Of a stretch of DNA of 34,404 nucleotides, positions 22,481-24,561 are shown piece after piece. A model generated the notes under the pieces. That model ran no database searches, had not been told where the DNA came from, and was given only the letters and a program-made list of their open reading frames with translations. Source of the DNA: Nemertoderma westbladi (lineage: Eukaryota; Animalia; Xenacoelomorpha); NCBI GenBank assembly GCA_032718475.1, contig JAUCBJ010007516.1, positions 1-34,404 of the forward strand. The letters run 5' to 3'. The translations under genes were made by a program, and so were the position numbers. Position 1 is the first letter of the stretch. The number at the start of each line of letters is the position of its first letter.

Positions 22481-24430
22481 AGACTGATCACCACATTTCC
22501 GAGTGGTAGCGCAGGTGGGCCGGATGGTATCCGACCCCAGATCATCAAAGATCTCATAAGGGCCGAAAATGGAGAGTCAGCATCCCGACTTCTTAACTCC
22601 ATGTGCAAGTTCGTCGACCTTGATGTTGCCGGTAAGATCCCAGACTGTATCGGACCACTCTTCTTTGGAGCAAACCTCTTCGCATTTGTGAAGAGTGTAG
22701 GAATCCGGCCAATCGCTGTTGGTATGACATGGCGACGACTGTGCTCAAAATACGTCGGCTCACTCGTGAAGGAAGAGAGGTCAGCCTCATATGGTTCCAC
22801 TCAGCTCGGCATCGGGACCAAGAACGGAGCCGAAGCAGCAGCACACGCAACGCGTTCGTATGTCTCAGCAGATAATAACAGCTGCTCGGTTTTACTGAAA
22901 GTCGATTTCAGTAATGCCTTTAACACGCTCCGTAGAGACTCTCTCCTAGAGACAATCCATCAGCGCTATGAAAATGCTAAGAAATGTGAGTTATTTTTTC
23001 TGGGAGAAACACCCGAAGAGGAGCGCCATCGCATCCACAAAGAGTTCAACAGCATCTGCGAGGGAATCTTAGTACCCGACCTCGCCAACCTCACAATGCT
23101 GGGCGCGCCGACAGGGAAATTCGCAATGGTGAAATGTCTTGAGGCAAAGGTATCTGATCTGGAGACCATGAGTAGCCGGTTATCATCGCTCGAAAGTCAC
23201 CACGCGTTTTTTCTCCTGAAGAATTCCTTCGCCATACCCCACCTTCTTTACTTCTTGCGCTCCGCCCCATGCTTTGAATTCCCGGCGATTCTAGAGCGAT
23301 ACGACCAACTCCAACGATCCTCCCTCCAAGACATCGCCAACTCGCAAATCGTCGACAAGGCATGGAAGCAGGCTTCACTTCCTGCCCGATTGGAAGGCCT
23401 TGGGATGAGCTCTGCCAAGCAGCTCGCACCGACTGCCTATTTGGCTTCAGCGGCTGCTTGCAGACCTCTCACGAATCTCCTTTTCACTCCAGAAGTTTAC
23501 TCGGTACGAGATATCCCGGGAGCCCTTCACCCGCAACCCATCGCGAATGACATCACCTCTCGCAGTGCACTAGAACTGTGTCAGTCCTACACCACCACTG
23601 ACGTCATCGCACCAACCGATTCCAAACAGAGTTCATGGATGGCTCCAATCCATGAGTTCAACCGTGGTCGCCTCCACGAATCCGCTGTCGGTAACGATCT
23701 GGCGCGGCTAAACTCTTTAGACGACCCAATCCCTCGCTGTTGGATTGATGCGATCCCAGTATCGTATTAGGCTTGAAACTAACAGATGCCCAGCTCCGTA
23801 TTTCAATAGCAACCCGCCTGGGATGTAAAGTAACGGAACCCCACAACTGTTTCCGGTGCGGTAAACCCGTTAAATCTGACGGTCTCCATGGTCTCTCGTG
23901 CAGTAAGAGCGCAGGTCGACAAGCACGCCACAGCATGTTGAACGATATCGTAAAGCGATCACTAAACAGCTGCGGCGTGCCATCCCTGCGTGAACCGACA
24001 GGTCTCTGAGCGATGGGAAGCGGGTAGATGGTGTTACATTAGTTCCTTGGAGCCAAGGAAGAACACTTACCTGGGACGCCACAGTAGTCGACCCGCTGGC
24101 CCCCAGCCATCTCAGAATAAGCCAAACCATTGGTGGTCGCATAGCCGAGGATCAGGAGAACGTAAAGATCAGGAAGTATCAGGAGTTAATTGATCGGGGC
24201 TATCAGTTCGAACCATAGTTGCCATTGAGACATTTGGCCGCCCCGGTCCGTGAACAGCCGCTTTCCTCAAAGAAGTCGGGATGAGGCTGCACGCCAACAC
24301 ACATGAGCCCCGTTCTCATCGCTTCTTACTACAGCGTATCCTGATAGCTATCCTGATCGGAAACACCGCTTCGATATTGGGAACCAGCGAATCATTAACT
24401 GAAGGCCTCTACGATATTTTAGAGGTGTAG
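22481..24430 (+). mobile_element. CRE-clade non-LTR retrotransposon (RT, zinc knuckle, restriction-like endonuclease); 5'-truncated and inactivated
   Basis: RT motifs GSAGGPDG, IRPIAVG..WRRL, QLGIGTKNGAEAAAHA and LLKVDFSNAFN; WKQASLPARLEGLG; knuckle CFRC...HGLSC...RHSMLND; RLE motifs REPTGL, KRVDGVTLVPW..GRTLTWDATVVD, KIRKY, AIETFG, LQRILIAILIGNTASI. Frameshifts lie near 23770, 24008 and 24218. The QGDPL/YLDD region is deleted near 22970. The stop TAG is at 24428-24430. Confidence 0.9.
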
Positions 24431-24431
24431 T

Positions 24432-24561
24432 GAAGCATCTGAGGCTTATCTCGTTGGATTGTTTGAGGACACGAATCTGTGCGCTATCCACGCCTATCGA
24501 GTTACCATAATGCCGAAGGATATCCAAACTGGCCCGTAGGATCACAGGCGAGAGGGCGTAA
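24432..24561 (+). pseudogene. H3: Histone H3 3' fragment (E94 to stop), degenerate
   Basis: Translates as [32 protein letters not shown](+1 nt)[10 protein letters not shown], versus canonical [42 protein letters not shown]. Confidence 0.95.

Follow-up and report, generated by a model that had tools for sequence, protein, structure and literature searches.

The DNA analysed here is a contig of 34,404 nucleotides from the xenacoelomorph Nemertoderma westbladi, called the window in what follows, and it consists of eukaryotic, repeat-rich DNA. On its forward strand lies the decayed and 5'-truncated open reading frame (ORF) of a retrotransposon (22481-24430), coding for a reverse transcriptase (RT) and a restriction-like endonuclease (RLE). 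One nucleotide beyond its stop codon this frame is joined to the 3' part of a histone H3 gene, which reads in the same orientation down to the H3 stop codon. The chimera of retrotransposon and H3 is real and unusual. A preliminary description had placed it at 22481-24561 of the forward strand; these positions stand as the core of a feature which, with its flanking repeats and hairpin arms, is larger (22429-24737).

The surroundings are varied. An ORF for a ubiquitin-conjugating enzyme (16984-17565, +) is intronless and intact (PF00179, E 1e-45), and an AMP-binding ORF of 673 amino acids (29388-31409, +; PF00501), presumably coding for a protein of the fatty-acid transport type, is intronless as well. 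That both genes lack introns while lying in repeat-rich DNA suggests an intron-poor genome or retrogenes. A further sequence is present in two copies, at 13455-13818 (+) and 25974-26301 (-), with 295 of 309 aligned bases identical. Its translation has no Pfam match and carries what we take to be a motif of the C-terminus of RTE-type LINEs, so that a trans-acting mobiliser of this kind possibly exists in the genome. A MITE-like element (21970-22352) has 18-nt terminal inverted repeats, is enclosed by 23-nt direct repeats (21946-21968 and 22393-22415) and has a depth, summed over contigs, in the thousands to tens of thousands. Two tandem arrays, at 4090-5106 (315 nt x 3.2, 99%) and 32804-33164 (30 nt x 12, 100%), are very homogeneous.

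The retrotransposon frame, its relatives and its other copies

The frame opens, truncated, within the N-terminal domains of the RT (22481-22969, +), which are 53-57% identical to the homologues P0003 and P0001 and match RVT_1 at E 0.0048, under the curated cut-off. At 22969-22973 (+), both the alignment of homologues and the run contigs described below indicate that an internal, in-frame deletion took about 90 amino acids (about 270 nt) out of the catalytic core of the RT, among them the QQGDP and xLDD motifs found in relatives. The C-terminal part of the RT follows, with thumb and linker (22973-23767, +; 34-47% identity to P0001-P0005). After it, in a broken frame recognized by homologue alignment and motif order (23749-24430, +), come a CCHC knuckle and the RH..E..(R/K)PD..D motifs of the endonuclease, all in order downstream of the RT. 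By segment, the identity of the element to P0001-P0005 is 34-65%. Its last residues are LYDILEV, and the stop codon after them is the natural C-terminus, the five best homologues ending in register with it.

The preliminary description had called this a CRE-clade RLE retrotransposon, with the caveat that it is a decayed copy. The caveat is borne out by three frameshifts (near 23765, 24008 and 24215), an internal stop (24251) and the deletion of the RT core. As a non-LTR element of the RLE type, built like CRE/SLACS, it is upheld by motif order, phylogeny not being the basis. Knuckle and endonuclease follow each other as in SLACS/CRE elements (PMC12857005, available text), and the spacing of the endonuclease motifs, judged by eye, is within one residue of the consensus quoted in that text; the motif letters are RHS and RVD in the window, RPD in relatives. 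A non-LTR-type RT, its core now deleted, is indicated by the weak RVT_1 match, by 243 RT-bearing relatives at E <= 0.001 in a protein search and by a family profile whose best solved relatives are R2 proteins, distant ones (E 5e-13). One relative, P0158, bears the source name 'Retrotransposable element SLACS protein'. In a FastTree tree of 44 rows and 18 loci, from which L010, L022, L023 and L058 were excluded for their short frames, the window is sister to P0252 inside a clade of 14 rows, made up of unnamed proteins and with an SH-like support of 100. The label 'CRE-like' is thus used here for a build (motifs, one source name and the general features of such elements) and not for a phylogenetic position.

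The loci listed for the relatives number 85, namely 80 of the 98 loci confirmed in metagenomes and five from contigs of prokaryote genomes. An H3 peptide query, which recovers itself in the window, found no match in the 85 loci listed or in 258 proteins. These loci are distant, at most about 58% identical to pieces of the window, and say nothing of the window's own family. None of the relatives was in a viral contig. No histone Pfam label appeared among the matches listed in the protein searches (the best 120 of 243, the best 120 of 365 and 8 of 8), which is a weak negative since gene calls end at the stop codon. The end of the ORF is kept in 29 of the 85 loci listed, with 14-4991 nt downstream, four of the 29 sharing one metagenome prefix. 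In seven of the 29 an A-run or a (TAA)n tail stands 16-217 nt past the stop codon, so that a UTR of their own is normal for these relatives. Of the 18 loci in the tree, L015 alone belongs to the window's clade; its UTR, of 16 nt and rich in T, leads into A7, and H3 is lacking. Association with H3 is therefore not clade-wide; specificity can be a matter of the family.

Two side observations concern the relatives themselves. Five of their loci (L081-L085) come from contigs in the records of five prokaryote genomes and are probably eukaryotic contamination of bins. Some relatives (P0141, P0145, P0162, P0175, P0170 and P0142) have extra Pfam domains beside the RT (PF02338, PF00443/PF13423, PF02257/PF23011, PF00628), possibly protease or PHD modules captured in CRE-like ORFs.

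The sequence is present in four runs of one organism, in one of them to a small extent only, and the run that covers it best may be the window's own source. Other copies of the element are seen in the run contigs, which come from three runs in two studies. They match the body of the element at about 98% and, in all three runs, continue upstream of 22483; the start of the element (22481-22483) was set from this loose end. At the RT deletion they carry sequence, other letters continuing at 22969 and 22977, and they differ from the window at two of the frameshift sites. From such matches we infer that fuller copies probably exist and that the family would be young in this organism, at about 2% divergence from the run contigs. 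Summed contig depth, which is not copy number, is higher along the final 150-200 nt of the ORF, a rise that fits every model of the locus and chooses none. A 321-nt contig of run X4, known by its coordinates only, covers 24221-24430 and 66 nt beyond.

The junction with histone H3

The join itself had been read as an ORF end, a TAG codon, a single T and then H3 from E94 onwards, in the same orientation and down to the H3 stop. The sequence, Pfam and alignment agree with that reading in full. The TAG occupies 24428-24430, the T is 24431 and H3 starts at 24432 on the forward strand, the whole pseudogenic piece, codons 94 to stop, spanning 24432-24561 (+) according to Pfam, alignment and translation. 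Its first 32 amino acids are in frame and match the Pfam family Histone (PF00125, E 3.5e-12); 31 of the 32 are identical to residues 94-125 of H3, the sole change being K115Y. A 1-nt insertion near 24528 then shifts the frame, in which the piece reads on to its stop codon (24559-24561) with one further change, judged against the usual H3 C-terminus. Between the ORF of the element and H3 the sequence has neither UTR nor tail. The earlier remark that a 3' UTR and poly(A) are absent is right for this interval and has to be amended farther on, where an A9 run lies 120 nt past the H3 stop. The caveat that the 5' part of H3 is not present upstream is sustained: a Pfam search found no histone match in 68 of the 69 flanking frames of at least 45 amino acids between 17600 and 29300 (one frame was omitted), and on the 5' side the flank consists of one arm of an A/T-rich hairpin.

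The decay of the two partners can be compared. The H3 piece has at least three substitutions that change an amino acid, one of them relative to the usual C-terminus, for 1.8 expected from the divergence of the element (35 of 1905 nt against the run contigs), with P 0.26. This supports the view that the H3 piece is no more decayed than the element. As the decay of the two matches, H3 was probably still intact in its source when it was copied.

Flanking repeats and hairpin arms

A 13-nt direct repeat encloses the element, the H3 piece and what follows it. The 5' copy (22468-22480, +) adjoins the 5' end of the element and is a candidate target-site duplication. The 3' copy (24682-24694, +) begins 120 nt past the H3 stop and ends in A9, being a candidate duplication and/or a remnant of poly(A). 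Between the H3 stop and this second copy stands a tail of 120 nt (24562-24681, +), A/T-rich (31% GC), either an H3 3' UTR or a UTR of the element. The repeat is of low complexity: the 13-mer is present three times in the window, the third copy at 2532, and an equally long match is found in 1 of 133 control tiles.

The 50 nt on the outer side of each copy form the arms of an imperfect A/T-rich inverted repeat, the left arm (22429-22467) likely being half of a hairpin that preceded the insertion, the right arm lying at 24697-24737. Compared with the reverse complement, in a test picked post hoc like that of the repeat, with the sequence already known, the arms score 38, a value that none of 6822 tiles of the window (best 28), none of 1016 A/T-rich tiles and none of 5000 shuffles attains. 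When tiles of 250 nt are used, two other places of the window score 37 and 35, so that A/T-rich sequence is able to come close. For the empty site as modelled, the folding energy is -18.9 kcal/mol; shuffles give -7.1 +/- 2.1 kcal/mol, and none of the 500 reaches the value of the site. A search of the window for a second copy of the empty site gave only low-complexity matches. Short-spacer hairpin repeats are also seen at 18245-18446, 11636-11804 and 28450-28604, so that hairpins like the presumed insertion site are common here.

A duplication-like repeat, albeit of low complexity, around element, H3 and tail is what a retrocopy would leave, and the arms enclose the same three parts; the whole is likely one retrocopy, and the local nick would then not have been in H3. 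On the evidence of these boundaries, 22481-24681 was likely inserted as one block at the centre of the hairpin. The 3' end of the local insertion is likely near 24682-24694, not at codon 94 of H3, the local site being an A/T-rich hairpin. H3 would thus be cargo, which would explain why its 5' half is absent here. It had been proposed that the junction with H3 marks the TPRT nick of the present insertion; with repeat and arms enclosing element, H3 and tail together, this proposal is not supported. Nor do the two halves of a target flank the insertion, as they would at a target-specific site, the 5' flank being a hairpin arm. A reading in which a cut-and-paste DNA transposon carried the block was also considered. 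The two copies of the repeat share one orientation, and a direct repeat of 4-10 nt was not found up to 4 nt from the ends of the arms; both facts speak against such a carrier, which would have a duplication outside its inverted termini. Scanned over its whole length at the Rfam gathering cut-offs, the window yielded no match, hence none to the histone stem-loop after the H3 stop. Ahead of the 3' repeat copy there is no clear poly(A), and a canonical poly(A) signal is absent; the only A-run at the 3' end of the block is the A9 inside the repeat.

Origin of the chimera and comparison with known systems

The account that we prefer, and to which we would give about an even chance, is that the block 22481-24681 arose by TPRT of a chimeric RNA, transcribed by read-through from a donor copy that lay at codon 94 of an H3 gene. 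A donor copy with almost no 3' UTR would have sat in a live H3 gene at this codon, and its transcript would have run through the 3' part of H3, ending about 120 nt past the H3 stop. A T-rich nick at the present site would then have primed reverse transcription, back through H3 into the element, and an early stop would have produced the 5' truncation and the duplication. The copy would have decayed later, the RT-core deletion included, unless that deletion occurred during copying. From the anatomy, boundaries and relative decay, which are observed, we infer the donor, the transcript and the priming. The account explains both the missing 5' half of H3 and the lack of other histone matches nearby. 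Against it count the low-complexity repeat (1 of 133 tiles; third copy at 2532), the post hoc tests, the absence of a clear poly(A) and of its canonical signal, the lack of H3 in the 85 loci and 258 proteins of relatives, the relatives with UTRs of their own, L015 without H3 and the lack of a second empty site in the window.

The junction with H3 predates the present insertion or arose while it was being copied. Likely it was made in the donor, whether through targeting, an insertion by chance, a switch of template or capture, and targeting of H3 survives only one step removed, at that donor. Within the donor account, we lean slightly towards targeting rather than chance. A join one nucleotide past the natural stop codon would be hard to obtain by a random break, and it is chiefly on this ground that a family-level link with H3 stays under consideration; the UTRs of relatives and the fact of a single observation weigh against that link. 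That the family targets H3 is accordingly a tentative idea, a reasonable possibility below even chance. It is with the same reserve that we picture a young CRE-like family which would cut H3 at codon 93/94, would have no 3' UTR or tail of its own and would rely for its 3' end on H3 RNA made by read-through; the window would then contain a stray off-target copy in which that tail was preserved.

A one-off template switch in a family unrelated to H3 would do without such specificity. RT would have begun on a polyadenylated, H3.3-like H3 mRNA and jumped to the RNA of the element near its stop codon, adding one base. Repeat and hairpin fit this course equally, and it is favoured by the lack of a histone stem-loop match after the H3 stop, by an H3 probably intact at copying and by the template jumps of R2-type elements, which come with untemplated bases. 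However, the jump must land within one nucleotide of the stop codon, although the UTRs of relatives measure 16-217 nt, and chimeras with cellular RNA usually hold that RNA at their 5' end, so that we consider a switch rather unlikely. In another scheme the family permanently carries the H3 piece and tail as its 3' end, after one ancestral capture and with no H3 specificity. An ORF followed by about 250 nt and an A-run does resemble the UTR and tail of relatives, and the run contigs pile up on the last 150-200 nt of the ORF (in depth, which is not copy number). A recent capture apart, however, a UTR of long standing should by now differ from the H3 protein sequence more than this one does, and we take this scheme to be improbable.

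A local deletion between the element and a downstream H3 copy, capture by a small DNA transposon, or a misassembly would suit a repeat-rich genome, a copy with one internal deletion already and a join that is known from the assembly alone. Such a deletion would need to end one nucleotide past the stop codon, inside a block bounded by a duplication, and a captured block would have a duplication outside the arms, which is absent; these are poor candidates, taken together. Site-specific insertion into a resident H3 at codon 94, the 5' half being deleted later, as first proposed, draws on the exact join, on a CRE clade that is mostly target-specific (PMC4640811, available part) and on a copy with at least one other deletion, but it makes a coincidence of the 13-nt repeat and paired arms around the whole block and finds no other histone match nearby, and is very improbable.

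If the donor account and its targeting version are true, we would have here an RLE retrotransposon whose specific target is a multigene family that codes for protein. It would extend the idea of a safe multicopy niche to protein-coding arrays and offer a new natural specificity for the study of how endonucleases read DNA. If targeting fails, the locus still shows clearly a retrotransposon that spread a fragment of a histone pseudogene, which is of modest interest. LINE 3' transduction and chimeric retrocopies are related phenomena, in which downstream host sequence is copied with a 5'-truncated element, with a duplication and an A/T-rich site. In typical cases the UTR and tail of the element precede the transduced DNA, whereas in the window host sequence begins one nucleotide past the stop codon. 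Among CRE-clade elements, spliced-leader genes are known targets. A Tx1 family of Repbase reportedly lies in histone H2B genes; the literature search did not find it.

In the literature searched, as far as its text was available, we found no histone target for CRE-clade elements and no histone-targeting non-LTR family, which Repbase and subscription reviews could contain. The targets listed are rRNA, tRNA, snRNA and spliced-leader genes, microsatellites, telomeres and other transposons, histone genes being absent from the available parts of PMC8869645, PMC4640811 and PMC4494074; the word 'histone' occurs 0 times in these parts and in that of PMC13708176. Fish histone amplicons hold fragments of transposable elements, with no claim of targeting in the accessible portion of PMC6136364. 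A family is called target-specific when more than 20% of its flanks are at one target site (PMC4494074, in part).

CRE1/2, SLACS, CZAR, Cnl1, MoTeR and FoTeR have, as in the window, a single ORF with RT, CCHC knuckle and C-terminal endonuclease. Telomeric repeats are among the targets of the CRE clade in the available text of PMC12857005, whereas the partner in the window is H3, and the window copy differs from these elements in lacking both an RT core and, ahead of H3, a UTR that belongs to the element. Multicopy targets were adopted repeatedly in the Tx1 clade, by Keno, Kibi, Koshi and Tx1-Mar (PMC4494074, in part); these families belong to another clade, have an APE endonuclease and use targets other than H3. 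R2, in 28S rRNA genes, is co-transcribed with its target (same source, available part), which we counted in favour of the read-through donor. Utopia (U2 snRNA), R2 and NeSL (spliced leader) have non-coding RNA genes as targets, in many copies, whereas the window offers one copy with a protein-coding partner; Utopia copies also keep their 3' UTR. In the window a candidate duplication surrounds element and partner. Target genes without their 5' part adjoin the 3' end of Utopia (PMC4640811, available part), and in this the window is alike, an H3 piece without its 5' part adjoining the 3' end of the element.
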